Made by a program: the position numbers and the translations under genes. The notes beneath the pieces are model-generated. The model had not been told where the DNA came from and did not search any database. It saw only the letters and a list, made by a program, of their open reading frames with translations. A stretch of DNA of 64,000 bases, from IMG/VR virus record IMGVR_UViG_3300032167_000006, one strand, 5' to 3'. This DNA comes from a virus. Taxonomy: Duplodnaviria > Caudoviricetes. Positions 416 through 61,597 of the stretch are shown in pieces; positions within the stretch are counted from its first letter, which is position 1, and every line of letters begins with the position of its first letter.

Positions 416-428
416 TACATTATATTAA
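416..428 (+). promoter_or_regulatory. Putative late promoter, TACA variant (TACA-ttatat-TAA)
   Basis: Matches the WACA-N6-TAA motif found ahead of most operons; 120-nt leader to ATG 547. Confidence 0.45.
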
Positions 429-430
429 AA

Positions 431-458
431 AAGAGGGATTATTAATTTAATCCCTCTT
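431..458 (+). terminator. Hairpin, 11-bp stem, TTAATT loop
   Basis: aagagggatta-ttaatt-taatccctctt after the stop at 408; only a weak U-tract, so it could be a 5' leader hairpin instead. Confidence 0.55.
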
Positions 459-481
459 ATCTATAAATTAGATATAAGATG

Positions 482-527
482 ATTTTGAAATGATAGATCG
501 TCTAGTTCTCCAAATTTTGAAATGATA
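482..527 (+). repeat. 14-bp direct repeat ATTTTGAAATGATA x2
   Basis: Identical copies at 482-495 and 514-527, just upstream of RBS AAGGAGG of ORF 547. Confidence 0.8.
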
Positions 528-546
528 AATTAAAGGAGGCATTAAA

Positions 547-783
547 ATGAAAAAAATAAAAGTCCGTATGAGCCAAAAACATGACACCGAAGCTAATTGG
601 TTAAAGGTGCCTACATTTATCCCTTCAGATGGAGAACTAATAATATACGACCCAGATGATAAAAATAAATATCCAAGAATGAAAGTTGGAGATAATAAGA
701 CTACTATAGTAAATCTTCCATTTATATCTGGTGCGGGTGAAATACTCTATAATGAAGATGGCGAAAAAATATTTCTAATGTAA
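547..783 (+). CDS. Small tail-fibre N-terminal-type adaptor (Mtd_N/hyaluronidase-N-like)
   Basis: QKHDTEANW...FIP..GELIIYD...RMKVGD.KT....LPF; paralogue of 1373..1681; RBS AAGGAGG. Confidence 0.65.
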   Translation: MKKIKVRMSQKHDTEANWLKVPTFIPSDGELIIYDPDDKNKYPRMKVGDNKTTIVNLPFISGAGEILYNEDGEKIFLM

Positions 784-852
784 TATTATTAGATGTATTT
801 ATATGGGATTTATATTTTAATAAATTTTATTCGCCTAGAAAGATATAAATTC

Positions 853-876
853 CCCTGTGAGAGCAATCTCACAGGG
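853..876. terminator. Hairpin between convergent genes, GCAA tetraloop
   Basis: ccctgtgaga-gcaa-tctcacaggg. Confidence 0.7.
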
Positions 877-884
877 ATTAATAT

Positions 885-1280
885 TTACTTTAATTCAGAA
901 TATAAATCTATTAGGATTTCTTTAAATCCATTAGCATATACAGTAATTTTTGGTTCAATATAAACGCTATAATCGTTTATTTCAATTATTTTTTTCATTG
1001 AGCTAAATATAGTGTATGAATTAGAGTTGTTATTATTTATAATATTATAACAAATAATATTTAAATTATTATCATCATCTACTTTATATTCTATTCTTGT
1101 CTCTTTTTCATCATAATCAAATTTTATATTAATTACTATATCAGTATTTAACTCATAAGAGTCTTGTAATGTAATTATAAATTTTGATTCTCTATCATTT
1201 CTAACTACTGCACTTTTTGATAAAATTTTTTTATATTTGTTATCTACGATAACATCACATGATATAGAAGTATGTTCCAT
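885..1280 (-). CDS. Hypothetical protein
   Basis: 131-aa ORF with RBS AAGGAGA; the only minus-strand gene inside the fibre cluster. Confidence 0.65.
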   Translation of the reverse strand: MEHTSISCDVIVDNKYKKILSKSAVVRNDRESKFIITLQDSYELNTDIVINIKFDYDEKETRIEYKVDDDNNLNIICYNIINNNNSNSYTIFSSMKKIIEINDYSVYIEPKITVYANGFKEILIDLYSELK

Positions 1281-1372
1281 ATTAAATATCTCCTTAAAAT
1301 TATTTTATCTTAAAGTATGTAATATTTTAAAAATTAATAAATAAAAATTCCTAAAAAGGAGGGATATAAATT

Positions 1373-3945: not shown

Positions 3946-3983
3946 ATTACTGTTTTAAAACGGAACAAAAGGAGAAAACAAAA

Positions 3984-5586: not shown

Positions 5587-5631
5587 ATTTTAAATATAAT
5601 TCATCTTTAAATAAAGGAGGAATTAAAAAAT

Positions 5632-5826: not shown

Positions 5827-5860
5827 TAAAATAAAACTTTATAAAGGAGGTTAATCCTAT

Positions 5861-6736: not shown

Positions 6737-6754
6737 TAAAAAGGAGGATTTATA

Positions 6755-7842: not shown

Positions 7843-7875
7843 ATTAATTAAGACTATAAAGGAGGTTAACTCTAT

Positions 7876-21880: not shown

Positions 21881-22813
21881 TTAAAATTCATGAAAATCTA
21901 CATGATCACAATTATCACATTCATATCTATATTTTGGTGGATAAGATGTAAGAACCATAGTTAAGTTTTTACGCACATTTCCTCCACATTTAGGGCATTT
22001 ATATTTTGGTTCTGAAAATTCAACTTGCATATTTAAATTACTCTTAAATAAGTGAGCATGATTATTTATATATTCTTCTCTATCTGCTAAAGTAGCTTGA
22101 GGATAATCTCCAGTTAATATACAAGTACCTTCTAAATAAGTATCAGATACTGTTAATGAATTAGATATACCTTCAGTTATATTTATAGGTTCTTCTATTT
22201 TATCGGTACCTGTAATATCTTCATCATTAATAATTTCTTTTAATCTTTCATTTATTTTAATACCGCTATATAAATTAGGTGAAGTTCCAAAATGTACATG
22301 TTTATTATTAAATACACTAAATGCATAATGCATTAATCTCGCTACAACTCTTAAAGGTACTTTGCCAGTACAAGCTCCAAAAGCTGGTATTACAATTGCT
22401 TTAAGATGGCATGTTTTTGCTTTAGCTAAGCAAGCATACGTACAGTCATAAATTACACGAGGATCAATAATTTCTTCTGGTATTCTCATTGTAGGAGTAT
22501 GTAAGATTACATGTTTACCATAGCATACTGCCATACATGAACCAACAGGTTGATAACCATAATATTTTGCATCTAATATTGTAAATACATTAGTCTGAGT
22601 CATTTCTCCTAAATATTCTATAATAGCTGCATCATATCCTCCGCTCATAACACCATAACTATTTGCAGGAGATACTATACCATCTATATCTTTATGAGTA
22701 TCCATAAAATGCCTAAAATTATCGTTAACAATTTTAAGTTCAAATGTTTCATTAAATACTTTTTTCCATTCAGCCACCATATCAGGATTTTGATCTAATA
22801 AATAAATTTTCAT
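21881..22813 (-). CDS. Macrodomain (ADP-ribose processing) protein with C-terminal zinc ribbon
   Basis: IVSPANSYG.MSGGYDAAI, ILHTPTM, IVIPAFGACTG; CPKC...CDNC at the C-terminus. Confidence 0.85.
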   Translation of the reverse strand: MKIYLLDQNPDMVAEWKKVFNETFELKIVNDNFRHFMDTHKDIDGIVSPANSYGVMSGGYDAAIIEYLGEMTQTNVFTILDAKYYGYQPVGSCMAVCYGKHVILHTPTMRIPEEIIDPRVIYDCTYACLAKAKTCHLKAIVIPAFGACTGKVPLRVVARLMHYAFSVFNNKHVHFGTSPNLYSGIKINERLKEIINDEDITGTDKIEEPINITEGISNSLTVSDTYLEGTCILTGDYPQATLADREEYINNHAHLFKSNLNMQVEFSEPKYKCPKCGGNVRKNLTMVLTSYPPKYRYECDNCDHVDFHEF

Positions 22814-22838: not shown

Positions 22839-22851
22839 TTATTTAATTGTA
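22839..22851 (-). promoter_or_regulatory. Putative late promoter TACA-attaaa-TAA
   Basis: Predicted +1 lies 27 nt upstream of the macrodomain gene start. Confidence 0.55.
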
Positions 22852-22903: not shown

Positions 22904-22916
22904 AACAATCTAATAA
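22904..22916 (+). promoter_or_regulatory. Putative late promoter AACA-atctaa-TAA
   Basis: AR9-type consensus; +1 lies 19 nt before ATG 22934. Confidence 0.75.
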
Positions 22917-22933: not shown

Positions 22934-25900
22934 ATGTCAATTAAAGTTCTTTCTAATATAGAACCAAAAAGACCAGATCTATATAAAGTTACTGATGGTG
23001 CATATGTTGGATACGAGAATGCAAAAATGGAAGGTGTAGATAATGTATCAGCTGCAATTGATAATATTTATGGTATTATTACAGCAGAGCCTACAATGGA
23101 ATATCATGCAGATTATCCAGAAAAACAATATTGGGCTTTGGATGATACACCAATAATAAATTTTATCTATAAAACAACTATACCTGGTAAATATACTATA
23201 AGTGTTACTCGTAATGGTATAGCAATACCAATAGCTGATAAACAACGTAGTGGTAGTGGTACAATAAGTATACAGTTACCAAAAGCTACAACTCAAGGTC
23301 TATTTGCATATGAAGTATCTATTGTAGATGGAATGGGTAATATTAATTCACTTAAATATACATTTATTTATGGTGGAGTTACAATCAGTTCTGATTTTAA
23401 TAATATTTTAAATAATAAAGTGTTTACTGTTGGAGATGATTTAACCTTTCCAATTAGTATATCATATGCGGAAGACGGTCAAAGAAATATTTCTTACTTT
23501 GTTTACGATTCTTCCGGTAAGGAAGTTAAAAAAGGTGTTAAAACTTTAGGCGATAAAGATGTAAATAATGAAACTATAGATACTGAATTTAAATTCACTA
23601 AAAAAGATTTATATACATTAAAATTAGAAGGTAATGTAAATAACGCATTATATTCAAACAAACTGGAATATTCATTTAATGTATTAAATCCTAATTCTAT
23701 AGCTGTAAGCATTACACAATGGCCTAAAAATAATCCAACAACAGATGATGCAATTTCTATAGGATATCGTGTTATTACAAATATAGATGAATTAAAAGAC
23801 AATAATGAATTATGCGCTATATTATCAATTTATAAAATAAATGATGATCTTACAGAAACAAGAATAAAATCGTTAACTACCCCACTTACTTCAGGCGATA
23901 TTAAAATGTGGAATATTGGACGTATATCATCTGATGGTAATTATAAATTAAAACTTGAAGGTGGTATAAATGGCGGTAGTATCACAGATGATATTATAGT
24001 AGACTCCATTCTATACAATTTAAGTATAGGTAAAGGCGGTAGTTCAAACTATTTAAATGATAGCCATTTAATAGCTTATTTTGATGCTAATGAAATGGAT
24101 AATGCTGATAAGGATCCATATATATGGGAATCATCTAAAAATTCTCAATACTATTTTAAATTACATGGATTGAATTATCAAACCAATGGATGGGTAACAG
24201 ATGAAAATGGGCAAAAAATGTTATCATTTACAGGCGATTCATACGGCGAAATGAGATACAAGTATACAGATGATAAAGGTAAATTACAAGATGAAGCATA
24301 TTGTCCTATGAATTATACTAATAACGGAAATACAATAGAAATATTATTCCGTAGTAAATGTATAGGTGAATTAGGCGCAAATGTTTTAACTTGTAGATAT
24401 GGCAACTCTACTGCATCTGGCGGATATATTTTAAAATATGATAATGTATCTATTGCTACTGTAGGAGATGAAAATATATCAAGAGTTATTTCAGAAGATC
24501 GTTGGACGCATGTATGTTTTGTAATCGATAATGATATTAGAGCAGAAGTAATAAAAGATAAAGTTAATTTAGAAGATTTAAATACATTTAATAGCATGAA
24601 GATATATATTGATGGATGCTTATCTGCATGTAACAGCATTGGTGATTGGAAATTTGCTGGTAATAATGATGAATCTTCAGCAAAGCAATTGTTACTCAAT
24701 GCTGCATATACAGGTTTAAATAGTTTTGGTGAATTCGGAACTTGTGATATTAAATTATTAAGAATATACGATAAAGCATTAACCTCTACAGAAGTTCTTG
24801 GTAATTATATTAGTAGTATAAGTGATATAGAAAAGAGAGTAGCAATACAAAATAAAAATAATATAGATTATGCTGATGTACCAGTCATTTATTTTATTAG
24901 AAATAAACAAGGCTATATTGGTGATACTGCTCCAGTAGAAAAAACATTTGCTACTTTAAATACCATTCAAAAGAAAGAAGGTTCTGGCCCTACATCAAAA
25001 AACTCATGGGTTAATTGTACCGTATGGTATAAGTACCATGATGATAGTGGTAACTGGTATACTGAAAAATATGAAGATGTAGATGTATATTTACAGGGTA
25101 CATCTTCATTAAAATATGCTGTTAAAAATTATAAAATTAAATTATATAAAAATTCAACAATAGAAGAAACTGGCGAATATGATGAAAATGGCAATCCTAT
25201 TATATTAAAAAAACACGGTGCAAAAAATAAAATAATACCACCTAATAAAGAAAATGATGCAACTTGGATTGTTCCGGATAGTACATATACTCTTAAATGT
25301 GATTATATGGAGCAATCTCATAAAAATAATACATGTACAGCCATTTTCTATGAAAATCTATTATCTGAAATTGTTAATACTGATGCAGTAAAAAATTATG
25401 GTGTTAATGATAAATATAGCGTTGCAAAACAACAAAAAACAACTTATTATGATGCTAATGGAGAAGAAATAACTGTAAATAAATTTAGAGATGCTATAAA
25501 TGGTTTTCCAGTAATATTATATTATAATGATAATTATATAAATGATAATACAATCGATCTTAATGAAACAGATGATTATGGCGGAAATACACAAGACGTA
25601 TATGCTGGAACTTATATGTTTAATGTAGATAAAGAAGGAAAACAATTAGGATTTGAAATAAATAGCGGTAGTAATACACCTTTAAGTTATACTGATGATG
25701 ATGGGAATGAAGTAGTATTAGATGATATTACATATGATATACTTCCATGTGTATCATTTGAAGGTACTACCAATATCGATACAAATGGTGCATGTGGATT
25801 TTATGACTACGATTTATTATCAGAAGACGATAAAAAGGGATTTTCTGATAAATATGCTTATATAGGTGCGACATTTGAACCTAGATTTACTTATGTCGAT

Positions 25901-28900
25901 GATTTAGAGAAAAAACTTGAAAAAAAATATAGAAATGAATTTATGTATGATGCTGAAGGTAATGAAACTAATGAGTATAAAACTTTAGTAGATGAAGTAA
26001 TTGCTAAATTTGTTGAAGAGGGAAAAGAATATACCGAAGATGATTTACAAACCGCTATAGATGATGCAGTAAACAATATCGTAACCCAAATTGTGGATAA
26101 TATAAAAAATCATGTAACTTTTGATAAAATGTACCAAACAATAAAATGGGTTAACGCAAATTGTAATAATGAGAAAAAGTTTAAAAATGAATTTAAAAAT
26201 TATTTTAGTTTTACATATTGTTTGGCTTATTATTTACAAATGATGGTATTTGCTCAAATAGACAATGCTGGTAAAAACGCTATGTTTGATACCTGGGGCG
26301 GTGTATTTTATCCACGTCCATATGATATGGATACACAGATGGGATTTAATAATATAGGAGAAGATGTAATTATACCATCTGCAGAAATAAATTGTTATAT
26401 GACTAAAGAGGAAATAACTGGTGATTTTAAATTATTTGCCTCTATTATTAGCGGATTGCCAGATGCGGATGGAAATGAATATGATCCAAATAAACATATA
26501 AGATTTAATTCATATAACACTCTTGTATCTAATTTATGGAATGCATTTGGTACATATTTCCATGAAGAAATAGCCAGTACGTATAAATATTTACGTGAAA
26601 AAGGAATATATAATGTAGATAATATATGTAGATTAGTAGATAGTTATACCACTGATATAATAGGGGAATCTTTTTATAATAAAGATGCAGTTTCTAAATA
26701 CATAAATGTGAATAAATACCTATTTGCTTGTCAGGGAAATAGAAGTAGTAGATATCGTAATTTTCTAGAGCAACGTATTATATTTTTAGATACCGTATAT
26801 AATTATGCTAAAAATAATTTAAATACAAATGCTGGTTTCCGTTCTGCTATAGTAAACGTTACAGGCGCTAATACTGGAGTGCTTGGTTTGACTACATATA
26901 CGCCTCAATATGTTAATATACGTGTAGGTGAAGAATGTGAAATAACTGTGTACATAGATCAAGACAGTAAATATAACTTAAATGGTACTGTTTATAACGG
27001 CGCTTTATTAACATTACCATTTGCAGGCCCTGATATATCTGTTATTATTTCTGGAGCTGGAAATATAAAAACTATTGATCATACTGCAGCATTATACCTC
27101 AAATCGTACGAAATAGAAAATTGTACAAAATTAAATAATATAGCAATTACAAATTCTTCTATGCTGGAATCTATTAAAACATTATCTAATACTTATTTAC
27201 GTAGCGTAAATTTAAGCGGTAATAGAAAATTAGTATCAGCTCTTACTTTGGCAGAATGTAAAAATCTTAAAGAAGTTGATATAAGCAATAGTGCTATATC
27301 AAGTATTTCTTTACCTGAAGGTGCTCCATTATCTTTAATAAATCTTAAAAATAGTAAAATAGGTTCATTAACTCTATCTGGATTACAATTTATTGATAAT
27401 GATGGTTTGAATCTTGAAGGATGTAATAATTTAACAACTTTAAAAATTTCAAATTGTCCAAATATAACAGAATTGGATATATCAAGTTTAATAAATCTTC
27501 AGGAATTAGTAATTGATAATATGCCAGGATTAGAGACATTAGATTTATCTTCAAGTAAATTAAATACTTTTAATATTACAAATTGTAATAATTTAAAAGA
27601 ACTTAAATTGGATGCTTGTTCTGGTAATGTGCTTAAAGACTTAAACTTGACTTCTTTGTATAGTTTGGAAAAATTATCTTTAAAAAATGCAACATGTTCT
27701 GACGGCATATTTATATCATTGCCGAAGTATATAAAAGAGTATGTTGATATGCCAAAAGACGAACAAGATAATCTAACTGAAGAAGAAAGAAAAGATTATT
27801 TATGGGGAGAGTCTTTAACCTATATAGATGTATCTGGTAGTAGTTTAAAAGAAATCAGATATGGTGGTCTTAAAAATGTAGATGATCCTGTTGCTGATAT
27901 GACTCAATTAACTAATTTAGAACGTACTACATGGGATAATTATAGTAATACGTTCAATAATTGTGGTATGATTCAAAAAATTATTAATTTTAATATTAAA
28001 GGTAGTTTGAGTGAAACATTTAGATATTGTAAGAGCTTAACATATGTTTCAGGTACTGTTGTAGATTGTACGTCTTTGGCTAGTAGCTTTTATGATTGTG
28101 AAAATATTGATGAAATTAATTTAACTTTTACTGATCCAAGACCTACAAATGCAGATAGTATATTTTACGCATGTTTTAATTTACCTGTAAGCTACATGAA
28201 TTCTATATTAGAAAGTAATACCACTATAACAAGTTTAAATAATGCATTTTATAAATGCTATAAAATAACAGGTGGTACAGTAGCTAAAGGCGGAATGCCA
28301 AATATAGCATGTTTACCAAAATTAAATTCAATGTATGGTGGATTTTTACGTTGCACTAATTTAAAATCAATACCGCAAGGATATCTTAATAATAATACTA
28401 AATTAACAAATCTAACTTATTGTTTTGGGGATTGTACTGCATTAGAATCAGTACCACATTCATTATTTAAAAATTGTACCGATCTTGAAGGATTAAGATC
28501 GTGCTTCACAGGATGCTCAGCATTATCATCATTTTTTGACAATGCAACTAATACGGAAATTAATCAGGAAGATTATAGTCCATATGATATTTTACCAGCA
28601 CCTGTATCAGGCACTAATAAAATAACAAATATATCATTTTTATTTAGCGAATGTAAAAATTTACAATTTCCTACAAACAAAAATGGAACCACTTATTCTT
28701 TATATGATTTCTTTAAAAATGCTAAAAATTTAACTCTTGCCGAAGGAACATTTATAGGATGCGGAAAGTTAACAGAAATACCAAATGGTGTTTTAAAAGA
28801 AAATACTAAATTAATATCTATTATTGGTATATTTAAAGCCACTGGATTGGAAAGTTTGCCAACCAATTTATTTGGTAATAAAACAGGAACCCATACATCT

Positions 28901-36174: not shown

Positions 36175-36187
36175 TTATTAATTTGTT
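36175..36187 (-). promoter_or_regulatory. Putative late promoter AACA-aattaa-TAA
   Basis: +1 lies 25 nt upstream of the RNAP start at 36151. Confidence 0.75.
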
Positions 36188-36233
36188 CAGTGGCTCTTAA
36201 TATACGTATTTTGTATAATTTAAACATATGTAA

Positions 36234-36246
36234 AACAAAAGAATAA
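36234..36246 (+). promoter_or_regulatory. Putative late promoter AACA-aaagaa-TAA
   Basis: +1 lies 24 nt before ATG 36269; divergent from the RNAP promoter. Confidence 0.7.
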
Positions 36247-36268: not shown

Positions 36269-36553
36269 ATGAAAAAATATTTTTGTGCTTTATTTAAAAA
36301 TTTACAGTTGCAAATTGCTGTACAAATATGGGCTAAAGATAGAGGAACAGCTCAATTAACTTTAATGGAAAATTATATAGCCAGTATAAAAAATAATCCT
36401 GATCTTAAAGATATTAAGATTGAAGCTAAATATACCAAGATATATGCAGTTGAAATTACAAACGATAAAGATTTTGTAACATATGATGATATTAAACGTA
36501 TGATAGATGAAATAAAATTTATTAGAGGTGGAAGCGATGGCGAAAACTCATGA
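36269..36553 (+). CDS. Hypothetical protein
   Basis: 94-aa ORF, RBS AAGGGG. Confidence 0.65.
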   Translation: MKKYFCALFKNLQLQIAVQIWAKDRGTAQLTLMENYIASIKNNPDLKDIKIEAKYTKIYAVEITNDKDFVTYDDIKRMIDEIKFIRGGSDGENS

Positions 36554-37257: not shown

Positions 37258-37270
37258 TACATTTAAGTAA
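37258..37270 (+). promoter_or_regulatory. Putative late promoter TACA-tttaag-TAA
   Basis: +1 lies 32 nt before ATG 37301. Confidence 0.55.
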
Positions 37271-37300: not shown

Positions 37301-37831
37301 ATGGCAAATAAAGTATTAGAATTAGTAAAAGAAATTGATGAGACAAGATCTCAGCGTTCTGCATCTGCTAAAGATGAAATTAGAGTTATGAGAGCAATGC
37401 TCAATGATCCTGATTTTGTAGTTGATGTATACGGTAAAGGCGGAGTAATTGGTCAGTATTGTCCATACGAAGATGCTCATGCAATGGCCGCTAATATCAT
37501 TAAGGGTGCTACAAAAATGAGCACTAAAGAAGCAGAACATCTTGCATCTACTTATGAATTCACTAAACAGGATGCAAATACGTTTATTAATATCTCTAAA
37601 GAGTTTATTAATACTTACGTAGAAACAGGTCGTAAACTTCCGTTAGGTGGAAGAGAGAAATCTAATATTTCACTTTCTAAGAAAGTTAAAGAAGAGAGAA
37701 GCAATAACTTTCCTAAGAAAGTTGGAGTTAATGATGATGGATCTGATAAATATGAGACATGTGGTGAGGGTACAATTCCGTCACATAACAGCTTGAGAGT
37801 ACATTCATCATGCCCCTCATGGTTGAAATAA
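37301..37831 (+). CDS. Hypothetical protein, possibly a divergent HU/IHF-like DNA-binding protein
   Basis: C-terminal half (IIKGATKMSTKEA...FINTYVETGRKLPLG...LSKKVKEER...TIPSHNSLRV) loosely parallels the HU pattern. Confidence 0.45.
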   Translation: MANKVLELVKEIDETRSQRSASAKDEIRVMRAMLNDPDFVVDVYGKGGVIGQYCPYEDAHAMAANIIKGATKMSTKEAEHLASTYEFTKQDANTFINISKEFINTYVETGRKLPLGGREKSNISLSKKVKEERSNNFPKKVGVNDDGSDKYETCGEGTIPSHNSLRVHSSCPSWLK

Positions 37832-37939: not shown

Positions 37940-37952
37940 AACATATTAATAA
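37940..37952 (+). promoter_or_regulatory. Putative late promoter AACA-tattaa-TAA
   Basis: +1 lies 35 nt before ATG 37986. Confidence 0.75.
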
Positions 37953-40900: not shown

Positions 40901-43900
40901 TACTAATGGGTTAAGAGAAACTAATAGAGATAAAAATACCATAGATAATGCATTTAAAGGTATGGCTTCAAATCCTGAAGAGATGAAGAAATTTGCTGAT
41001 TCTATTGGATTTTCTATTAAAGGTAAAACCACTGATGAACAAATAGATTCTCTTAAAAGACGCTTTACTAAAATAATAGATAATGGCGAAGGTGAGAGAA
41101 GAAAACGTGAATCTGTATTAGGTATAAAAGGTGAAGAAGGAATCTCTGCAAGACAAAAATTTGCAGAAGAACTTGAATTTACCGGAAGCATAGAAGAAAA
41201 GCAAAAACAACTTGTTGCTCTTGCTAAGTATTATGGAGTACCTATTAAAGATATTTCTAAATATGATAATGACGATGCATTAAATAAATCATATATTAGA
41301 ATTATTGAAAAGAATAATGCTAGAGGCACTATGGGTAGCCCCTTAGCCCCTGGCTCTGTATCATATGTTAATAATCATGAGTTTGCATTAACTCCAAGTG
41401 GTATGCATAGACTTCCCACTGGTAAGGTTAGATTTAGTGAACCAACTCATATTATAAACTCTGAGCAGTCTCATGCTCTTGGACTTATAAGTGGCCCAAA
41501 ACGCACTAATGCTCAAGGATATGCTTTAGAAAAAGCTGCTGCTAGAGCTAATGGTGATACTATCGCTAGCCATGCTGATGGTACCAATATGAAAGTTGGC
41601 AAAGATGGTAATATGGATGCTAAAGAAATATTATCTGAAGCTAAGAAATTTATACCTGAGGCTGCAAGTGGTGGTCTTATAGGTGGTATTCTTTCTATGG
41701 TATTAGGATTAGCTGGCGGTCCTTTAGTTGGCGCTGCTCTTGGTGCCGGTGGTTCAATCTTAGCTAGCTCTGATACTCTTAAAGAAAAACTCTTTGGTAA
41801 AGCAGGAAAAGATGGAAAACGTGAAGGTGGTATTGTATCAAAAACCATCATGGATAAATTCCATAAATACTTCCCTGATATGACTAAATATGGTCTTGCT
41901 GGATTAATACCTGGTTTATTAACTCCTCTTGGTCCTATTGGCGGTATCATGGCTGGTGCTGCTTTTGGTTATTTAAAGAATAATGAAAAATTCACTAATA
42001 AATATTTTGGTGAAGAAGGCGCTTTCCATATTAAATCTAAAGATAAGAAAATTATAGAACAGTTAATGCCTGGAGCTGCTAAAGGCGCTGCTGCTGGTGC
42101 TATTGCTACATTATTATTACCGACTCCATTTGGTTTTCTTGGTAATGCTGTAATAGGTGCTGGTCTTGGTATGATGGCTTCTACTAATGATTTTAAAGAT
42201 TTAATACTTGGTAAAGAAGTTGATGGAGAACGCATGGGTGGTATTGTAGGTGCGTTTAAAGATGCATTTAAACCATTCGCTGATTCTATGAAAGAAGCTG
42301 GAAGTAAATTAAAAGATTCTTTCGAAGCAAATATAATAGACCCATTAGGTAAACTTATAAAACCTGCTATTCATGCATTGCCTATAGCACTTGGTTCATT
42401 ACCTAGACTTTTATCTAAAGCATTTGATAAATTCTTTGGTACTAGAATAGGCAGAACTATAGAAACTCGTGTTAAGGCTTTATTTAGTAAACCTGCTAAA
42501 GCATTAGGATGGGTTGGTAAGAAAGCAGCTGGATTAGGAAGTGGAATTATGTCATTAATCGGTGCTCCTATTAGGGGCGCTGGTGACAGGCTTAAAGCAT
42601 ACAATGTACGTCATGGGAACCTTATGGATGAAGATGCACGTGATATTGTAGGATGGATGGATACGCAACAGGAAAAGAAAAAGTTAGGCAAAAGAACTCC
42701 ATTATTTAAAAATAGATATAAAGTATCTTCAACTTTAAGAGCTGTTGCTGGAATTGGCGAAGAAGGCGGTATGGATATAGAAACTGCTGAAAGTTTAATG
42801 CGTAATTTAGAACGTATGAATGATACTGAAGCCACTGCTCAAACCAGATTTAATAAAGAAAAAAAGAGCATTAATAACTTATTAACAAGCTATGAATATC
42901 GTGAAGGTAAAAAGATATCTGATAAAGCTGTTAAGAATATTCTTAAAGCTGCTAATAAAAAAGATTATGATGAAATATCTAAAATATTACAAAAAGAAGG
43001 TCTTTCTAAAGAAGAATTTAATACCTTCATGGAAAAGGGCGGTTTAAAATCTGCTGTTTCAAATGTTGCAGATGCTCAATTTAGATTGAAAAATATAAAA
43101 AATATTACAGATAAAGATGCTGGCAAAGCTGCAGAAGAGCAATTACGTGCTCTAGGAATTGATCCTAAAGATCTTAAATTAAATGATAAAAGATCAAGAG
43201 CCGAGGCTGCACAATTAATTAAAAATCAATTACAGTTAGTTAATCCTGATAAAGTATTAGATTATGAAACTAAACTTGAAACAGAGAATAATGAAAATAT
43301 ATCAACTATTACTGAAAAAGTTGGTAGTATTGATGAAGCATTTAAACAAATGCTTGATATTCTTAGAGGTAAAGATGATAAAGTTAAAACTAATCAAGAA
43401 AAAATTGAAAGCAAACTAAATAAAGGTATAAATGCAGCAGATGAAAAATATACCGAAACTCAGCAAAAAGCAGAAGAAAAAATTGCTGAAGTTTTAGGTA
43501 AAGGTGAAGTTGAACAGTTAAGCAAAGAAGCTAAAGATAATTTAACTAGAACTACTAAAAAACGTAAACGTATTAAATCTTATACAAAATTCGGAGTTAA
43601 TGCTGCAAACGCAACTGCTGATGATTTTAAAAATGCTAGAAAAGCAACTTTCAATTTATTTAAAAGAATTCCTCAATACGTAGTACGTAGAATTACTCCT
43701 GAAGCTCATAAAGTTTTATCTAAATATACTGAAGCTAAAGCCAATAGAGTTAGTAAAGCATTAGGATCTAAATATATTAAGCATATGATTAAATATGGTA
43801 ATTATAATATAGATCCAGAAACTTTAGAGGTATTGAGTGATACTGCATATACTAGAGATTTAAATACTATAGGCCCTGTTTTAGTTAGAGCATATGAAAG

Positions 43901-49363: not shown

Positions 49364-49391
49364 TTAGGCAGGTCTTTTTAGACCTGCCTAA
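49364..49391. terminator. Hairpin after the tape-measure gene
   Basis: ttaggcaggtct-tttt-agacctgcctaa; the 3' arm overlaps the next promoter. Confidence 0.65.
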
Positions 49392-49402
49392 CAATTAAGT
49401 AA
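49390..49402 (+). promoter_or_regulatory. Putative late promoter AACA-attaag-TAA
   Basis: +1 lies 28 nt before ATG 49429. Confidence 0.75.
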
Positions 49403-51691: not shown

Positions 51692-51704
51692 TACATATGA
51701 GTAA
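51692..51704 (+). promoter_or_regulatory. Putative late promoter TACA-tatgag-TAA
   Basis: +1 lies 43 nt before ATG 51746 and falls inside the 5' arm of a hairpin. Confidence 0.5.
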
Positions 51705-51745: not shown

Positions 51746-52456
51746 ATGAAGAACAAAAAACAAAAATTATTAGAATATGATTCTAAATATGGACATATTC
51801 CAAAAGATTATGAACAAAGATTAGAGTATTTATACCATACACTTAATATTGATGATAATAAATCAGATGAAATTATTCAAGCCAGAAATAATTTTATTTG
51901 TTCTACTTATTATCAAACAATTAGACTTGTTATATATGAGATACCTGAATATACCCCGAGACCAAGAGCCAGGTTAATACATCGTGCTGGTATTATAAAT
52001 GCTGTTACTGGAGGTCATGATTTTATTCAAGTTTATTCAATTACAGGTAGACAGAATCGTGAATTTATGAAAATGTATACTAAAGAGAATTTACAAGAAT
52101 TAGAACAGCTTCTTTGTACACCATGTGATATCGAATATAAAACATATTTTCCTACACCATCTTATTATAATAAAACACAAATATTTTTAGCAGAAATTGG
52201 TCTCGATAGACCAATTATTAAACCAGATTTTGATAATATTGAGAAATCATACAGTGACGCATTCACTGGTAATATTTGGATTGACGATATAATTGTAGTT
52301 GATGCTACAATTAGAAAATACTATTCTGTATTACCAAGAGTTGAAATTGATTTGAAATTTGCAAATCAATTATGTAATCATCACCAGTATAAAGCAATGA
52401 TAAAGAGGAAGGATTTTACCGATGAAATGAAAGTAAATTATTTCGGAGGTAAATAG
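51746..52456 (+). CDS. rusA: RusA-like Holliday junction resolvase
   Basis: PRPR near the N-terminal part of the domain, KPDFDNIEK...DA..G.IWIDD..V and PRVEI motifs. Confidence 0.75.
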   Translation: MKNKKQKLLEYDSKYGHIPKDYEQRLEYLYHTLNIDDNKSDEIIQARNNFICSTYYQTIRLVIYEIPEYTPRPRARLIHRAGIINAVTGGHDFIQVYSITGRQNREFMKMYTKENLQELEQLLCTPCDIEYKTYFPTPSYYNKTQIFLAEIGLDRPIIKPDFDNIEKSYSDAFTGNIWIDDIIVVDATIRKYYSVLPRVEIDLKFANQLCNHHQYKAMIKRKDFTDEMKVNYFGGK

Positions 52457-52898: not shown

Positions 52899-53879
52899 TT
52901 AGAGATTGGTAAGATACTCATCTATGAATTCTTCATTTACATTAGCCATGTTAGTTGTATTTACCATCTCAAGCATAGTATATATTAATTGCGCAGAATT
53001 AACTATTCCATCCATATCTACTGCGCCTTCATGCATAAAATGAGACTTGAGAGCCTCATCTTTAAACACTGATGTTGTAAGAGCTTCAACCATATATCCA
53101 AATACAGAATTATCTCTAGTTGCTTTCTTCTCATTAATTTTACGTTTAGCTAAACTTAAATAAGATTCAGCTACTACATCATCACTACCATCAATAGCAT
53201 GAACTTTATCCTGTGCGTGCTTAATAATTTCTTCATATTCAATCTTATTAGCAGTATTAGTATCAATGAAATTAGTAATAGCATCAGCAACTCTATCTTT
53301 AATAGCTTTAGCAGCATCAGCAGCATCAACATCTTCGAGCTCTTTATAAAAATCATCAACAGTATTCTGATCTAATGTTTCTCCACCTATTTGGCCCCAG
53401 TTTTCAACACTGTCGTCACAGCAATCAAAACCTTCAAGAACTCTATCATAATATTTCTTAGTAATTCTGCTAAACTCAGAGAGAATTAAATTCTTTGTAG
53501 CAAATGAATTAATAAGATTTCCAGCACCATTCTCAACAACAAATTTATTTACAAGGTTACGAGAAACTACTTTATCTCTTGAAGTCATTGGGAATCCTAC
53601 TGATTCTTTATAAAGTTTATAAATACATTCTGCCATGAATGCTTCTTTAATTTTAGTCAATCTTTCAGATCTTGTTATAGATGAATTAATACGAGCTTCA
53701 TTATATTCTTTTTGCTGCTCAAAATAAGCTTCACGCTCACGCTGTTCAGCAGTCTGTTCAGCAATAATTTTATCTTGTTCAGATGCAAGTAAATCAGCTT
53801 GCTGCTCACGATACATACGATCAAGTTGAGAAGCACTAAGAAGCATATTATCTGTAGCTTTATTCATATTATAAATCAT
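52899..53879 (-). CDS. Putative virion (head-associated) protein
   Basis: 326 aa, acidic and helical, RBS AAGGAGG, own late-type promoter; function inferred from context only. Confidence 0.55.
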   Translation of the reverse strand: MIYNMNKATDNMLLSASQLDRMYREQQADLLASEQDKIIAEQTAEQREREAYFEQQKEYNEARINSSITRSERLTKIKEAFMAECIYKLYKESVGFPMTSRDKVVSRNLVNKFVVENGAGNLINSFATKNLILSEFSRITKKYYDRVLEGFDCCDDSVENWGQIGGETLDQNTVDDFYKELEDVDAADAAKAIKDRVADAITNFIDTNTANKIEYEEIIKHAQDKVHAIDGSDDVVAESYLSLAKRKINEKKATRDNSVFGYMVEALTTSVFKDEALKSHFMHEGAVDMDGIVNSAQLIYTMLEMVNTTNMANVNEEFIDEYLTNL

Positions 53880-53902: not shown

Positions 53903-53915
53903 TTATTTAAATGTT
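53903..53915 (-). promoter_or_regulatory. Putative late promoter AACA-tttaaa-TAA
   Basis: +1 lies 25 nt upstream of the start at 53879. Confidence 0.75.
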
Positions 53916-53922
53916 TTGATAT

Positions 53923-57363: not shown

Positions 57364-57380
57364 ATTTTAATATCCCTCCT

Positions 57381-58472: not shown

Positions 58473-58498
58473 ATATTCTCACCTCTCTTATTAACTAA

Positions 58499-58511
58499 TT
58501 ATATCTATGTT
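58499..58511 (-). promoter_or_regulatory. Putative late promoter AACA-tagata-TAA
   Basis: +1 lies 28 nt upstream of the start at 58472. Confidence 0.75.
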
Positions 58512-58586
58512 TTGGGCATGTAAATATACCTAAACCTCTATAACAAAAGCAATTATAATTGCATAATATAATAGTAGAAACTTATG

Positions 58587-59060
58587 AAGAGATTGTAATT
58601 TACATAGCTTTTTACATTATATTTAAATCAAACCTGCACATTTATAGTTATTGAATTTAATTCAATTAAAGTTATTATCGAAAGGAATGATTTAAATATG
58701 GCTGAAAAATATTTGAAAACTGGAGCTCTTAACCCTGCTTGGTGTGACGAACAATATGTAGCACATCAAACTGAACGTATCATGGATGGATTGGAGGATT
58801 TTCTTAATGGTGATATAGATGCAAATCTTAGTTTAGATTTAGGAGATAATGTATCTTTAAATATATCTGGAAAAAGAACAAATAATAAATCCATGTGCGA
58901 ATTAGTTGGAATTGACGAAAAAGATTACGAAGCAAAATTTAATTTCATCAAGCAGCATAGTGATAATCCAGAAGATTTAAAATTAGCTAGAGAGATTATT
59001 GGATTAAATACTTGATAAAGTATATATTTGGCTTAAAGCCACGTAAAACTACAATCTCTT
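58587..59060. repeat. About 26-bp imperfect inverted repeat bracketing ORF 58698..59015
   Basis: aagagattgtaatttacatagcttt (58587-58611) versus aaagccacgtaaaactacaatctctt (59035-59060). Confidence 0.75.
58698..59015 (+). CDS. Hypothetical protein
   Basis: 105 aa, RBS AAAGGA. Confidence 0.7.
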   Translation: MAEKYLKTGALNPAWCDEQYVAHQTERIMDGLEDFLNGDIDANLSLDLGDNVSLNISGKRTNNKSMCELVGIDEKDYEAKFNFIKQHSDNPEDLKLAREIIGLNT

Positions 59061-59076
59061 TATTTTTTTGCTATAA

Positions 59077-59089
59077 AACATAATATTAA
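59077..59089 (+). promoter_or_regulatory. Putative late promoter AACA-taatat-TAA
   Basis: +1 lies 25 nt before ATG 59113. Confidence 0.75.
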
Positions 59090-59112
59090 ATATTGAAAGG
59101 AGGTCTATTAAG

Positions 59113-60432
59113 ATGAATCAATGTCAACAGCTGCACGAAACTATTGTGCGAGACATTCTTGATGTTTTTGATAACGTTAAGAACTTTGATCAAATTGAAT
59201 GGATTAGAAGTAGAAATAATGTAGGTTCGATTGCTAAAAGAGCAAGTAATTTAGTTTTAGTATTTCCTGTAATTTGCTCTACATCTATTAATATCCAAAC
59301 CGCATCTATTATTACTAAAGCTATAGAACGTAAATGTGTTTCACTTTTACAGATTCTTTTTAGCTCAATGCAATTAACAAGCGTTGATAACATGTATGAT
59401 TATCTCAGACAATTCCATAGCAATTTAGGTCTTAAAGGAAATCTTACCCTTGATGATTTTATAACTGTTATGGATAGAATGGTTGATGAGGGTGCTGCTC
59501 AAATTACAGACATGGAAGCATACCAAGCTGTTAAAGAAGATATGAAAAATATTAACTATCATCTTAGTACTGAAATTAATCCTACATCTATTAACGAGTA
59601 CGTAATTCGTAAAGATATGTATGGCGATTCTCATGTAGTTAGAGAAGATTATAAGAGTTTTCTTAATAAAAAGATTAATACTGCTGTAGATTCTTCTCTT
59701 GCTAAACGCTCTGAAGAAATTTACAATGCATCTAAAAAAGTTGACAAACAGGTTGATTACTTTAGAAATCAACTTTCTACAGGTGAAATTAATAAAGCTA
59801 ATGAGCTTATGCCTACAACAATGATTGTTAATTTTACTACTAAAGATGATAAAGGTTCTACATTTACAACTACTGGCGTAGTTGGTATTAAAGCTAAATT
59901 ATATCCTGTAGATTCTATGGATATATGTAATCGTATTGCATCTAAATATAAAGATTCTAATGGTTTATTTAATCTTGTTAGAGCATCTACAAGAGAAATT
60001 TCTTTCTTTAGAGATCTTGCATTTGCTATAGATAAAGCTAAACTTGATGCTGTTATGATGGCTAAGGAATCTAATAATGCTAAGATATTTAAAGTTCTGG
60101 AACGTAGAGCAGCTAAAAATAGATTCTCTGCTTTACTTAAGAAAAATGATGCTTCTCCTATAACATCATTAATTCTTTCACAGGATGAAGTTGAATATCT
60201 TAAGAAATATAATTCATTAGATATGGAAAAATCATATGTAACTAGAAAGATTCTTGAGAATTATAACTTAATGGATATTGTTATAGCTGATGAATCTCTT
60301 GAAGTTGCTAAGTTTCTTTTTGATGATGGCGATGGTGTATTTGAGACATTATCGTTTGATTCACTTGAGAAAGAAGCTAAAGATTCTTCATACAAAAAAG
60401 TTGTTAATCTTATGAGTAGAATAAATCGCTAA
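59113..60432 (+). CDS. Putative virion structural protein
   Basis: 439 aa, RBS AAGGAGG, late-type promoter, adjacent to head-type genes. Confidence 0.55.
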   Translation: MNQCQQLHETIVRDILDVFDNVKNFDQIEWIRSRNNVGSIAKRASNLVLVFPVICSTSINIQTASIITKAIERKCVSLLQILFSSMQLTSVDNMYDYLRQFHSNLGLKGNLTLDDFITVMDRMVDEGAAQITDMEAYQAVKEDMKNINYHLSTEINPTSINEYVIRKDMYGDSHVVREDYKSFLNKKINTAVDSSLAKRSEEIYNASKKVDKQVDYFRNQLSTGEINKANELMPTTMIVNFTTKDDKGSTFTTTGVVGIKAKLYPVDSMDICNRIASKYKDSNGLFNLVRASTREISFFRDLAFAIDKAKLDAVMMAKESNNAKIFKVLERRAAKNRFSALLKKNDASPITSLILSQDEVEYLKKYNSLDMEKSYVTRKILENYNLMDIVIADESLEVAKFLFDDGDGVFETLSFDSLEKEAKDSSYKKVVNLMSRINR

Positions 60433-60449
60433 GGAAGGAGGAAAGAAAG

Positions 60450-61571
60450 ATGTATACTTATACGAGACCAGATCCTATAAAGGAATCTGATGCTTCGTTT
60501 ACTGGATATATGGTAGATGAGACAAAAATGATTAAATCTTTTGATTATGCTTCTATATATCGTTCACAGCAATTTACTGAAGCTATGAAATATTTCGATA
60601 ATGATGATACAATGACAAGAAATATTTTATTATCTGTAAATGAAGCTGATCAGAATCTTGTTATGACTTCATTAGCTAATAAGTTATATGGTCATATTAC
60701 TGAAAAGGTAGATGAGATAGATTTTGGTACTATTCCTAATTCTAAAGGTGATATTACTAAGATTGATAATTATGAAAAACTTCTTGATTGCGTAAATATC
60801 ATTTCAGATATTCTTCAGCAATATCATCAGGATACTACTCCTGTAGAGACTGTTAGTCTTGCTATACAGAATATGGTTGATAGAACAGATATGTTTGAGA
60901 AAGCATACAAACTTAACGTAGAAATGCCTATTATTATTTATAATACTATAGTACTTTCTATCGTAAGTGCTGTATCATATATGATTTCATCATGCATCGA
61001 ATTTGTTAAGTTACCTGAAGATAAAGGCTTTGAAATTGCAATGGATAAAATTTCAGCAGTTAAAGTCAGAGACTCTATCTTATTTAACGATCTTAAGAAA
61101 TTCAATAAGATGTGTGCTGATGGTTCTTTTGATAAAGCAATGGATTATGTAATGAAACAGAACGCTAATAATTTTGCTGGAGCTTCATTCGCATTTGGCG
61201 CTAGTTCAATTGTAGTTGCTCTTGGACTTTTATTACTTATAATCCCTGTTATTAGAGAACTTATATTCTTCTTCTATTATTCGAAAGCTAAAGTATCTGA
61301 TTACTTTGATGCTCAATCATCTTTATTATTAATTAATGCTTATAATATTGAGAATAATTTATCTAGAGATGAAAAGACCAAGAAGCAGATATCAGGTAAA
61401 CAACGTAAAGTTGCTGATGTATTTAAAAAGATTTCTAATACTCTTAAAGTTAATTTAAAGACTGGAGAAAAGAAATCTAGTGACGAAATTAATAAATTAG
61501 ATAAACAGAAATTTAAGCATGATGAGGTATTAGATAAGATGCCTGATTCTTCTAATTCTGTATTATTCTAA
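60450..61571 (+). CDS. Putative virion protein with one hydrophobic segment
   Basis: 373 aa; FAFGASSIVVALGLLLLIIPVI hydrophobic stretch; RBS AAGGAGG. Confidence 0.55.
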   Translation: MYTYTRPDPIKESDASFTGYMVDETKMIKSFDYASIYRSQQFTEAMKYFDNDDTMTRNILLSVNEADQNLVMTSLANKLYGHITEKVDEIDFGTIPNSKGDITKIDNYEKLLDCVNIISDILQQYHQDTTPVETVSLAIQNMVDRTDMFEKAYKLNVEMPIIIYNTIVLSIVSAVSYMISSCIEFVKLPEDKGFEIAMDKISAVKVRDSILFNDLKKFNKMCADGSFDKAMDYVMKQNANNFAGASFAFGASSIVVALGLLLLIIPVIRELIFFFYYSKAKVSDYFDAQSSLLLINAYNIENNLSRDEKTKKQISGKQRKVADVFKKISNTLKVNLKTGEKKSSDEINKLDKQKFKHDEVLDKMPDSSNSVLF

Positions 61572-61584
61572 TTTTAATTAAATA

Positions 61585-61597
61585 AACATTCATATAA
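61585..61597 (+). promoter_or_regulatory. Putative late promoter AACA-ttcata-TAA
   Basis: 111-nt leader to ATG 61707. Confidence 0.65.

Follow-up and report, generated by a model that had tools for sequence, protein, structure and literature searches.

The window, a 64,000-nt stretch of DNA from an uncultured jumbo phage (Duplodnaviria; Caudoviricetes; IMG/VR record IMGVR_UViG_3300032167_000006), carries a short motif, WACA-N6-TAA, that an initial annotation had listed 13 times as a late promoter of the type found in Bacillus phage AR9. A check of the window recovered all 13 elements with their coordinates and strands; as had been proposed, each lies between open reading frames (ORFs), in the same orientation as the gene that follows it (13/13). 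Taking the first A after the T of the motif as the predicted +1 and counting leaders from it, we recomputed the reported distance of 19–43 nt to the start codon in 11 of the 13 and obtained the same result; the leaders of sites 416 and 61585 are longer, at 120 and 111 nt. Judged by position weight matrix (PWM) score, 12 of the 13 are credible promoters and site 416 is a doubtful, weak candidate.

The putative late promoters TACAATTAAATAA (22839..22851, minus strand; PWM 14.7; predicted +1 at 22840) and AACAATCTAATAA (22904..22916, plus strand; PWM 14.0; predicted +1 at 22915) precede, with leaders of 27 and 19 nt, a 310-aa tail-protein-like gene (21881–22813) and a 2608-aa gene (22934–30760), respectively. 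Near 36 kb, AACAAATTAATAA (36175..36187, minus strand; PWM 14.5; predicted +1 at 36176) lies upstream of a virion RNA polymerase (vRNAP) beta-like gene homologous to AR9 gp189 (ATG at 36151; leader 25 nt), and its divergent partner AACAAAAGAATAA (36234..36246, plus strand; PWM 13.0) faces a 94-aa gene (36269–36553; leader 24 nt). Upstream of the 36175 site we found a further candidate missing from the initial list, TACATATGTTTAA (36220..36232, minus strand; PWM 10.4), which may form a tandem promoter with that site or be a chance match. Three plus-strand sites follow: TACATTTAAGTAA (37258..37270; PWM 15.8) ahead of a 176-aa gene (37301–37831; leader 32 nt), AACATATTAATAA (37940..37952; PWM 14.9) ahead of a 3786-aa tape-measure-like gene homologous to AR9 gp204 (leader 35 nt), and AACAATTAAGTAA (49390..49402; PWM 17.9, the top score in the window) ahead of a 749-aa virion structural protein gene homologous to AR9 gp205 (leader 28 nt). 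Within the 3786-aa gene and on its strand lies a possible internal promoter, CACAATTAATTAA (43210..43222, plus strand; PWM 12.1); 13 of the AR9 late promoters are internal (PMC5312081).

Further downstream, TACATATGAGTAA (51692..51704, plus strand; PWM 10.7) precedes a 236-aa gene (51746–52456) by a 43-nt leader with a hairpin at its start; this gene matches AR9 DNA at 175796–176050, inside the annotated RusA gene gp208. The minus-strand sites AACATTTAAATAA (53903..53915; PWM 10.6) and AACATAGATATAA (58499..58511; PWM 11.7) serve as predicted promoters of a 326-aa gene (52899–53879; leader 25 nt) and of a 363-aa virion structural protein gene homologous to AR9 gp213 (leader 28 nt), and AACATAATATTAA (59077..59089, plus strand; PWM 11.0) stands before a 439-aa virion structural protein gene homologous to AR9 gp214 (leader 25 nt). 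The probable late promoter AACATTCATATAA (61585..61597, plus strand; PWM 10.0) has a long leader to its 427-aa gene (61707–62990), an arrangement also seen at the major capsid gene, where 92 nt separate motif and ATG. Site 416, TACATTATATTAA (416..428, plus strand), is doubtful because its PWM score is below 9 and because, read on the other strand, it forms the T-tail of a minus-strand terminator (hairpin 431–458, −16.1 kcal/mol, z −4.3). No GACA-type site occurs within the window.

Across the whole genome (259 kb) the consensus of the late motif is D-ACA-N4-A-R-TAA. A scan of positions −58..−9 upstream of 259 genes revealed 54 sense matches to [AGT]ACA-N6-TAA, 14–41 nt ahead of start codons, against 6.96 ± 2.72 expected from a first-order Markov model (z 17.3); antisense matches numbered 7. 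The enrichment upstream of genes that the initial annotation had named as a check is borne out, with about 7 of the 54 sites, chiefly of the TACA class, expected to be chance matches. The spacing is equally specific, with 56 upstream ACA-Nx-TAA sites at x = 6 and 3–22 at every other spacing. Relaxing single positions indicated that A, C, A, T and A are each constrained, in the geometry ACA(−10 to −8)-N6-T(−1)-purine(+1), and AR9 run through the same pipeline gave an equivalent positional and spacing pattern. When upstream regions were searched for gapped k-mers without prior choice of a word, ACAT-N5-TAA ranked first (34 versus 2.4, z 22). At PWM ≥10 there were 54 intergenic and 13 coding matches, an approximately 45-fold higher density in intergenic DNA. 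The whole-window count of WACA-N6-TAA (30 observed versus 60.6 expected) is misleading, since TAA is avoided in coding DNA; 14 of those 30 matches fall inside the non-coding 3.74% of the window (binomial p 9e-13). The earlier view that −10 is fixed and −11 relaxed holds on both counts, and −11 is looser than the proposed A/T, with G used too: A/G/T/C = 27/13/14/2 at strict sites genome-wide and 31/15/22/4 at loose sites. Position +2 is fixed as A (56/64 sites).

Among AR9 orthologues, the motif stands upstream of genes for virion proteins, the tape measure, portal, terminase and prohead protease, and of all four vRNAP subunit genes. In the same survey of AR9 orthologues it was not found before the genes for DnaB, RecD, gyrase A, ligase, primase, GroEL, the DNA polymerase catalytic subunit, the gp226-like protein, betaN or beta'C. 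A 21-kb gene block of the window (1373–21831) has no consensus late site, so the motif does not explain all late transcription. In relatives with <30% protein identity the motif is kept at orthologous positions. Footprinting revealed that the capsid-gene site AACAATATARTAA is retained in 17 relatives despite diverged flanks and protein identities as low as 26%, that RACATTT-N3-TAA is conserved ahead of a virion protein gene, and that the gp226 gene in relatives keeps an early motif rather than the late one. Orthologous promoters vary solely at −11.

The early motif is of AR9 type as well. T[GA]TATAWTAT-N6-G, compared against the AR9 early consensus of PMC5312081, occurs 18 times in sense orientation in the genome versus 4.6 ± 2.0 expected, ahead of the gp226-like gene, the gene for beta'C of the non-virion RNA polymerase (nvRNAP) and several replication genes; none lies within the window. 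The initial annotation had predicted that a similar nvRNAP is encoded elsewhere, and the genome indeed contains all four of the split core subunits, with AR9-type beta/beta' genes at genome positions 165885–167834, 172196–173983, 122331–123863 (minus strand) and 203261–205456, and a full-length gene for a sigma-like gp226 homologue at 224028–225593. The latter matches AR9 gp226 directly (BLASTP 4e-19); a clade profile searched against the PDB had 7S01_A (AR9 gp226) as its sole match (E 3.2e-23, residues 36–485), and Foldseek with a structural model (mean pLDDT 76, low confidence in the helix 2.1bis segment) ranked 7S01_A and 7UM0_A at the top (E 4e-14, probability 1.00), with phiKZ gp68 (8QUE_B) third (E 3e-4). 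Motif statistics, N6 spacing, placement at virion genes and the nvRNAP and gp226 genes together support the identification of an AR9-type late promoter.

What these promoters imply for the base composition of the phage DNA is a separate question, on which the initial annotation had raised the possibility that T is replaced by U. The gene content argues against this. The genome encodes dUTPase (motifs PRSS, GIIDNDY, GDKFAQ and RHGGMGSTG), ThyA, dihydrofolate reductase (DHFR; 147 bits) and dTMP kinase (Tmk, passing TIGR00041); enzymes of this set lower dUTP and raise dTTP (PMC8150378). ThyA scores 206 bits and retains both the catalytic Cys and the uracil-specifying Asn; its nearest phage matches, at ~45% identity, are annotated thymidylate synthases. 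With phmmer, ThyA, DHFR, Tmk and dUTPase were undetected in AR9, S6, LPJP1 and phiR1-37, and a Pfam search detected no ThyA, DHFR or Tmk in BpSp. Conversely, AR9, S6, LPJP1 and phiR1-37 share a dCMP deaminase, a HAD 5'(3')-deoxyribonucleotidase and a GK-like kinase, which AR9 queries find in the other three phages at E 1e-10 to 1e-48; the same phmmer queries found none of the three in this genome, nor is there a PF00383 match. No homologue of AR9 Ugi was detected here, but this absence is uninformative because Ugi is equally undetectable in S6, LPJP1 and phiR1-37. ThyA or ThyX is encoded by 19 of 22 near-complete relatives. Thymine DNA is most likely, given the full set for dUTP removal and dTTP synthesis and the lack of every enzyme shared by the uracil-containing relatives; gene content predicts base composition, short of proof, and on this footing we consider it likely that the phage DNA, unlike that of AR9, contains thymine.

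If U did replace T, the same late promoters would be read by uracil-specific pockets like those of AR9, and some observations agree with this: a gp226 homologue is encoded, and every phage-database match of the window proteins belongs to the AR9/PBS1, S6, LPJP1 and phiR1-37 group, home of the known dU phages. Helix 2.1bis reads D-K-I-L-W-E-K-N here and D-x-V-I-W-x-[YF]-L on the AR9 side; three independent alignments agree that D238 and W242 are retained and that V206, I207 and Y210 are replaced by I240, L241 and K244, so that both the uracil-selective V206 and Y210, which stacks on −9G in AR9, are absent. Ile240 is beta-branched like Val206 and could still clash with the thymine methyl, and since betaN Arg363 of AR9 is conserved here as R408, a uracil-type pocket remains compatible with the sequence. 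However, the Val206-equivalent residue is I, P, L, V, Q, K or others across 82 homologues and I, K, V, R, G or deleted in IMG/VR loci, a position that thus appears hypervariable and free to vary in this clade. Moreover, an A at −11 (U in the template strand) is obligatory in AR9, but this position is A, G or T here, and the thymine-pathway genes absent from the tested dU-clade phages are present while the dCMP deaminase, HAD nucleotidase and GK-like kinase are missing. We therefore regard uracil DNA as improbable.

About equally improbable is that the promoters lie in DNA whose thymine is a dUMP-derived modified form (5-hydroxymethyl-dU or a hypermodified base), ThyA being a hydroxymethylase of the SPO1 type. 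ThyA-family enzymes in some phages do yield 5-hydroxymethyl-dUMP, hmU phages also carry dUTPase, PF00303 covers both dUMP and dCMP hydroxymethylases, and the ThyA found here falls slightly under the NF002495 equivalog cut-off (295.6 versus 327). Yet it passes TIGR03284, its best structure match is B. subtilis ThyA and its closest matches include Bacillus siphophage thymidylate synthases; in addition, the phage encodes a dTMP-kinase equivalog and a DHFR, an enzyme required only where folate is oxidised, that is, in true methyl transfer.

Reading of the motif by the host RNA polymerase, with A-R-TAA as part of a TATAAT-like −10 element, is very unlikely: the A/T-rich 3' half bears a loose likeness to a −10 hexamer and sigma-70-type scans give many weak matches in AT-rich DNA, but those matches are as frequent as in shuffled sequence (11 versus 10.9), the information lies in ACA at a fixed N6 with no −35 element, experiments have mapped this word as the nvRNAP promoter in AR9 (PMC5312081), and the phage has two RNA polymerases of its own. 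Equally remote is a role at the RNA level, in processing or stabilising polycistronic late transcripts, for although the sites occupy gene junctions, in many cases directly after terminator-like hairpins, and TAA might double as a stop signal, the back-to-back divergent pairs 22839/22904 and 36175/36234 suit promoters rather than processing of a single transcript, the word is identical to that at mapped AR9 transcription start sites, and positions after terminators are where new initiation is needed.

That the elements function as promoters is thus very likely, and the reading as a whole, promoters of the phage's own nvRNAP in ordinary thymine DNA, is probable. We infer the start site and the polymerase as follows. 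By analogy with AR9, injected virion RNAP would read the early promoters, including those of the gp226-like and beta'C genes, and the resulting nvRNAP holoenzyme would recognise two blocks set 4 nt apart, D-ACA at −11 to −8 and A-R-T-A-A at −3 to +2, with the template strand as the probable target. Initiation would occur at the A directly following the T, 19–43 nt ahead of the virion and vRNAP genes, whose ribosome sites are strong AGGAGG sequences. Because the DNA probably contains thymine, the gp226-type holoenzyme is probably able to read thymine at −10.

Among known systems, phiKZ, a thymine-DNA phage whose late promoter is also short and near the start site (TATG, with G as +1; PMC5312081), resembles this phage in having a five-subunit RNA polymerase with a sigma-like fifth subunit (gp68), but its promoter word differs and the similarity of gp68 is remote and structural only, undetected in sequence. 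Staphylococcus phage S6, Listeria phage LPJP1, Yersinia phage phiR1-37 and Bacillus phage BpSp, in which uracil DNA is demonstrated or presumed (for S6, across its group), share the virion, vRNAP, nvRNAP and gp226 genes at ~20–35% identity, and the AR9-related reference phages all show the ACA-N6-TA spacing peak; the enzyme set of AR9, S6, LPJP1 and phiR1-37 is the reverse of that found here, where thymine genes are present and the dCMP deaminase, HAD and GK-like genes absent. At −11, A makes up 43% here versus 65–80%, with almost no G, in AR9, LPJP1, S6 and phiR1-37 (178/241 in the four references, differing from this phage at p 3e-6 and 1e-4), and at +2, where A is fixed here, S6 and LPJP1 prefer T, phiR1-37 prefers G and AR9 has no preference. 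The closest counterpart is the AR9/PBS1 late promoter, AACA-N6-T-A/G(+1), read in AR9 by a holoenzyme of gp270, gp154, gp105 and gp089 with gp226 (PMC5312081, PMC5449584, PMC9209446). AR9 is a uracil-DNA phage, whereas gene content here indicates thymine, and −2 is a purine here versus A/T in AR9; the two share ACA at −10 to −8, N6 to T(−1)A(+1), a favoured A at −3, the lack of a −35 element and a location upstream of virion genes. Each of the five holoenzyme subunits has a homologue here, and the early promoters are nearly identical, N6-G geometry included. The late motif is a variant of that of AR9, relaxed at −11 (A/G/T) and with a fixed A at +2.

The window corresponds to positions 16618-80617, on the reverse strand, of a 258,973-bp contig with a G+C content of 29.6% and a completeness of 96% (IMG/VR-type metadata). 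At the nucleotide level, 20 kb of the window had no megablast match among 50,697 phage records, and the matches of a 1146-aa protein encoded in the window were confined to the AR9/PBS1 group of Bacillus phages, the S6 group of Staphylococcus phages, Listeria phage LPJP1 and Yersinia phage phiR1-37, at approximately 23-26% identity. Genome-wide, 51 of 259 predicted proteins matched AR9 at E<1e-4; the few AR9 matches and the distant, protein-level similarity argue for an uncultured, deep-branching relative of the AR9-type jumbo phages. The window covers a late-gene region, in which we found homologues of the AR9 virion proteins gp213, gp214 and gp205, the tape-measure protein gp204 and the virion RNA polymerase (vRNAP) beta subunit gp189, together with endolysin and peptidase genes.

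The initial annotation had read 13 WACA-N6-TAA elements in the window (416-61597) as AR9-type late promoters, and each of them was found where it had been placed, in an intergenic position and in the orientation of the gene that follows. Over the whole window the motif appeared depleted (30 matches against 60.6 expected) because coding DNA avoids TAA; non-coding DNA makes up 3.74% of the window, yet it holds 14 of the 30 matches (p 9e-13). We then called genes genome-wide, assigning their starts from ORFs and Shine-Dalgarno sites by a simple heuristic. When 140 upstream regions were scanned for gapped k-mers, with no use of the annotated pattern, ACAT-N5-TAA ranked first (34 against 2.4 expected, z 22), ahead of AACA-N6-TAA, GACA-N6-TAA and related words. 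The genome-wide enrichment proposed as a check was confirmed: between -58 and -9 of all genes, [AGT]ACA-N6-TAA occurred 54 times in sense orientation against 6.96 +/- 2.72 expected under a first-order Markov null, and 7 times in antisense, with approximately 7 of the 54 expected by chance, mainly in the TACA class. In the same interval the CACA variant stayed at background level. The spacing was sharply defined (56 sites at N6 versus 3-22 at others), and the resulting position matrix read D-ACA-WWWW-A-R-T-A-A, where D is A, G or T and D-ACA occupies -11 to -8, the T -1 and the following A the predicted +1. Matches scoring at least 10 numbered 54 in intergenic and 13 in coding DNA, an approximately 45-fold difference in density.

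Twelve of the 13 annotated window sites reached this score. The site at 416 is doubtful, because its score lies below 9, the next ATG is 120 nt away and the T-tail of a minus-strand terminator, read on the opposite strand, gives the same sequence; the hairpin of that terminator lies beside the site (431-458, -16.1 kcal/mol, z -4.3). This strong hairpin and a second of terminator type at 853-876 sit between convergent or antisense small ORFs; the terminator call was restricted to the minus strand for the former and covered both strands for the latter. The site at 61585 is a good match with a long leader of 111 nt, comparable to the major capsid gene, in which 92 nt separate the motif from the ATG; the leader after the 61585 site carries ACTTTTTAC three times (61605-61655), and its structure as a whole is not unusual (z +0.8). 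One further intergenic match, on the minus strand at 36220, had been overlooked. A 131-aa ORF at 885-1280 runs antisense to the surrounding late genes, and a 21-kb plus-strand block at 1373-21831, with genes of the tail-fibre-like, glycosyltransferase-like, M23 peptidase and endolysin types, lacks a consensus promoter of either class, late or early, inside it or directly before it (1281-1372 included); it may depend on a non-consensus promoter or on read-through from upstream.

To compare orthologous upstream regions, we took 62 loci around gp226 homologues from IMG/VR by an alignment-based search; a single-protein query for related loci had returned two relatives only. Ahead of the major capsid gene (genome 216320-216423, outside the window; relatives' loci L071-L132), the 13-mer AACAATATA(A/G)TAA, its "spacer" bases included, is near-identical in 17 relatives whose capsid N-termini range from 74% down to 26% identity and whose flanks are unalignable. 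It is followed by a leader of approximately 45-95 nt that often opens with a TTAGG...CCTAA hairpin, an arrangement that suggests an optimal strong promoter with a conserved leader element. Upstream of the gene for an AR9 gp165-like virion protein, (A/G)ACATTT-N3-TAA is kept after a terminator and similarly close to the start codon, and orthologous sites ahead of a vRNAP subunit gene differ essentially at the first base alone (G, A, C or T). Conservation of this kind would be expected of a functional promoter in which -11 is loosely read.

AR9 late promoters have the form AACA-N6-T-A/G, the last base being the start, as derived from 94 mapped starts, and its early promoters the form AAATATATATTAT-N6-G (PMC5312081); the late class is served by a five-subunit enzyme whose specificity subunit, gp226, contacts the template strand (PMC9209446). 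The genome encodes homologues of all four core subunits of this non-virion RNAP (nvRNAP) and of vRNAP subunits, and the gp226-like subunit that had been predicted to lie elsewhere in the genome is present as a 521-aa homologue (BLASTP 4e-19). A profile built from 22 members of its clade gave a single match in the PDB, AR9 gp226 (7S01_A), over nearly the full length (E 3.2e-23), and the AlphaFold model (mean pLDDT 76) matched the folds of 7S01_A and 7UM0_A best (E 4e-14), followed by phiKZ gp68. The LPJP1 homologue (L010, MZ422438.1 216484-218106) is annotated as two adjacent ORFs of 383 and 132 aa, which might stem from a frameshift or a sequencing error, or mean that the subunit is genuinely split.

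A second word, T[GA]TATA[ACT]TAT, which corresponds to the early promoter of AR9, occurs at 18 sense sites upstream of genes against 4.6 +/- 2.0 expected genome-wide, none of them in the window; it is preceded by a T-rich tract and, in 14 of the 18, followed by exactly six bases and a G. It stands ahead of the genes for the gp226-like subunit, nvRNAP beta'C and several replication proteins; AR9 likewise has an early promoter ahead of its gp226 gene, and this placement is kept in relatives. The late motif precedes orthologues of virion proteins, the tape measure, the portal, the terminase, the prohead protease and all four vRNAP subunits, and also some replication genes, as in the continuously expressed class of AR9. 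It is missing from the genes for DnaB, RecD, gyrase A, ligase, primase and the polymerase catalytic subunit, and from those for GroEL, the gp226-like subunit, betaN and beta'C. Two promoter classes, a homologue of the specificity subunit and this distribution over genes together support the late-promoter reading, in which start sites and template-strand recognition are assigned by analogy with AR9.

The initial annotation had further suggested that the DNA may contain uracil, and here the gene content pointed the other way: four enzymes of the thymidylate route are encoded and the enzymes of uracil-DNA (dU) phages were not found. The thymidylate synthase ThyA (PF00303, 206 bits; TIGR03284 passed; best structure B. 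subtilis ThyA, E 2e-41) retains the catalytic Cys and the uracil-specifying Asn, and its nearest phage matches are annotated thymidylate synthases of Bacillus siphophages at approximately 45% identity. Dihydrofolate reductase (DHFR, 147 bits) and dTMP kinase (TIGR00041 passed) accompany it. The fourth enzyme is a 290-aa protein (genome 232-1104, outside the window) with a dUTPase domain at residues 153-288, which was missed in a fast genome search with PF00692 and PF08761 and detected by direct hmmscan; its N-terminal 150 residues have no Pfam match. A dCTP deaminase was ruled out as the identity of the PF00692 domain, since all NCBIfam and PDB matches are dUTPases and motif V is present among the motifs PRSS, GIIDNDY, GDKFAQ and RHGGMGSTG. 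Such enzymes exclude uracil from DNA, and U-DNA phages are expected to counteract them (PMC8150378). ThyA, DHFR and dTMP kinase were absent from AR9, phiR1-37, S6, LPJP1 and the Bacillus phage BpSp in Pfam searches; because the fast search had missed the dUTPase of this genome, we re-checked such negatives by phmmer over all six-frame ORFs, which detected none of these three enzymes and no dUTPase in AR9, phiR1-37, S6 and LPJP1.

Conversely, the AR9 dCMP deaminase, HAD 5'(3')-deoxyribonucleotidase and guanylate-kinase-like protein were matched in S6, LPJP1 and phiR1-37 (E 1e-10 to 1e-48), and phmmer, with these dU phages as positive controls, found none of the three in this genome. Searches by tblastn with the AR9 uracil-DNA glycosylase inhibitor (Ugi), dCMP deaminase and deoxyribonucleotidase also gave no match here; the result for Ugi is uninformative, because AR9 Ugi is undetectable in other dU phages too. 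A holin was the only Pfam match among 20 proteins scanned around ThyA and at genome 96-116 kb. Among 22 near-complete relatives, ThyA was found in 6 and ThyX in 13, the three closest relatives tested being among them. Three of the 22 lack a synthase, two of which have a dCMP deaminase: G005 (L080) and G007 (L084; IMGVR_UViG_3300029305_004606, 200,990 bp). The latter has neither ThyA nor ThyX and a dU-type V-I-W in its gp226 helix (N-N-A-V-I-W), making it a candidate new uracil-DNA phage.

In AR9, template thymine at -10 or -11 abolishes activity; at -10, its C5 methyl would run into V206 of gp226, a clash relieved by V206G. V206 was reported to be absolutely conserved among gp226 homologues of dU phages (PMC9209446). 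We found D-x-V-[IM]-W-x-[YF] in all seven reference phages aligned or searched. In the present protein, three independent alignments agree that helix 2.1bis retains both invariant residues, D and W, without an intervening gap and that V206 corresponds to Ile240, I207 to Leu241 and the -9G-stacking Y210 to Lys244; the AlphaFold model has low confidence in this segment. BetaN retains R363 (as R408); K375 lies opposite T420 in the alignment, and lysines follow two and three residues further on. Across 82 full-length homologues the flanks of V206 are near-invariant (S-K-N-P-D-K-x-L-W-E-K-N-x-I-R-G), and the position itself is I in 17, P in 15, L in 13, V in 12, Q in 7, K in 6 and other residues in the remainder; among the IMG/VR loci the position holds I, K, V, R, G, T, M, A, P, H or L, or is deleted. 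In a helix that is otherwise conserved, the one hypervariable position is thus the residue responsible for enforcing uracil in AR9.

On this evidence the phage likely has thymine DNA, although gene content does not prove base composition. Uracil DNA is unlikely, with the caveat that Ile240 is beta-branched like Val and could still clash with a thymine methyl. A modified thymine derived from dUMP is a minor alternative, against which the DHFR gene speaks. A reading of the motif by host sigma-70 was rejected. In the mechanism that we propose for thymine DNA, the elements established in the genome are two predicted promoter words with AR9 geometry, split between genes of early and late type, the coding sequences of both RNAPs and of the sigma-like subunit, a late word conserved at orthologous sites, and a gene set for making dT and removing dU. 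By analogy with AR9, the early word would be read by vRNAP and the late word, in the template strand, by nvRNAP with the gp226-like subunit, starting at the A after the T; gene content and the variability of the V206 position suggest that the -10 pocket tolerates thymine.

The AR9 nvRNAP is the textbook case of a polymerase that recognizes its promoter only with uracil in the template, and reviews present uracil DNA as the way in which such phages direct transcription to their own genome. A 2026 jumbo-phage review still gives uracil as the device promoting viral transcription initiation, and full-text literature searches found no description of gp226-type promoters in thymidylate-encoding phages. 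We detected 751 gp226 relatives of this phage, and 19 of the 22 near-complete genomes encode a thymidylate synthase; together, these show that this promoter and its specificity subunit occur widely among phages predicted from gene content to make thymine DNA. An AACA-N6-TA motif or a gp226 homologue alone is therefore insufficient to infer uracil DNA. The homologues offer a natural variant series for testing how base discrimination arises and is lost, and D-ACA-N4-AR-TAA and T[GA]TATAWTAT-N6-G could be used to annotate temporal gene classes across this large uncultured group.

Run through the same pipeline, AR9, LPJP1, S6 and phiR1-37 also showed the N6 peak, whereas the bases at -11 and +2 set this phage apart. 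The four references carry A at -11 in 65-80% of their sites and G in only 2-5 sites apiece, compared with 43% A, 21% G and 31% T in this phage (G in 15/72 versus 12/241, p 1.2e-4; A, p 3e-6). The relaxed -11 proposed initially thus held, with a base set wider than the A/T envisaged, since G is used as well. At +2, A is found in 56 of 64 sites, whereas AR9 is unconstrained, LPJP1 and S6 have T and phiR1-37 has G. Both features recur in the pooled loci of uncultured relatives, and the motif represents a lineage-specific variant of the AR9 promoter. According to the 2017 AR9 paper, no late consensus had yet been identified for phiR1-37; the whole genome of this phage (L029-L042, AJ972879.2) has 70 ACA-N6-TA sites upstream of genes, where other spacings give 23-35. 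A stands at -11 in 48/66 sites and G at +2 in 51/66, giving the candidate consensus AACA-N6-TAG. We lean towards the view that dependence on uracil evolved secondarily as a speciality of the small cultured AR9/S6/phiR1-37 group and that most gp226-type polymerases, this one included, read ACA-N6-TA in the template strand of thymine DNA. The "uracil gate" residue (AR9 V206) would then be free to vary, and the looser recognition of -11 might, more speculatively, follow from the compact U-U-G stack of AR9, whose U(-11)/G(-9) contact has no space for the C5 methyl of thymine.
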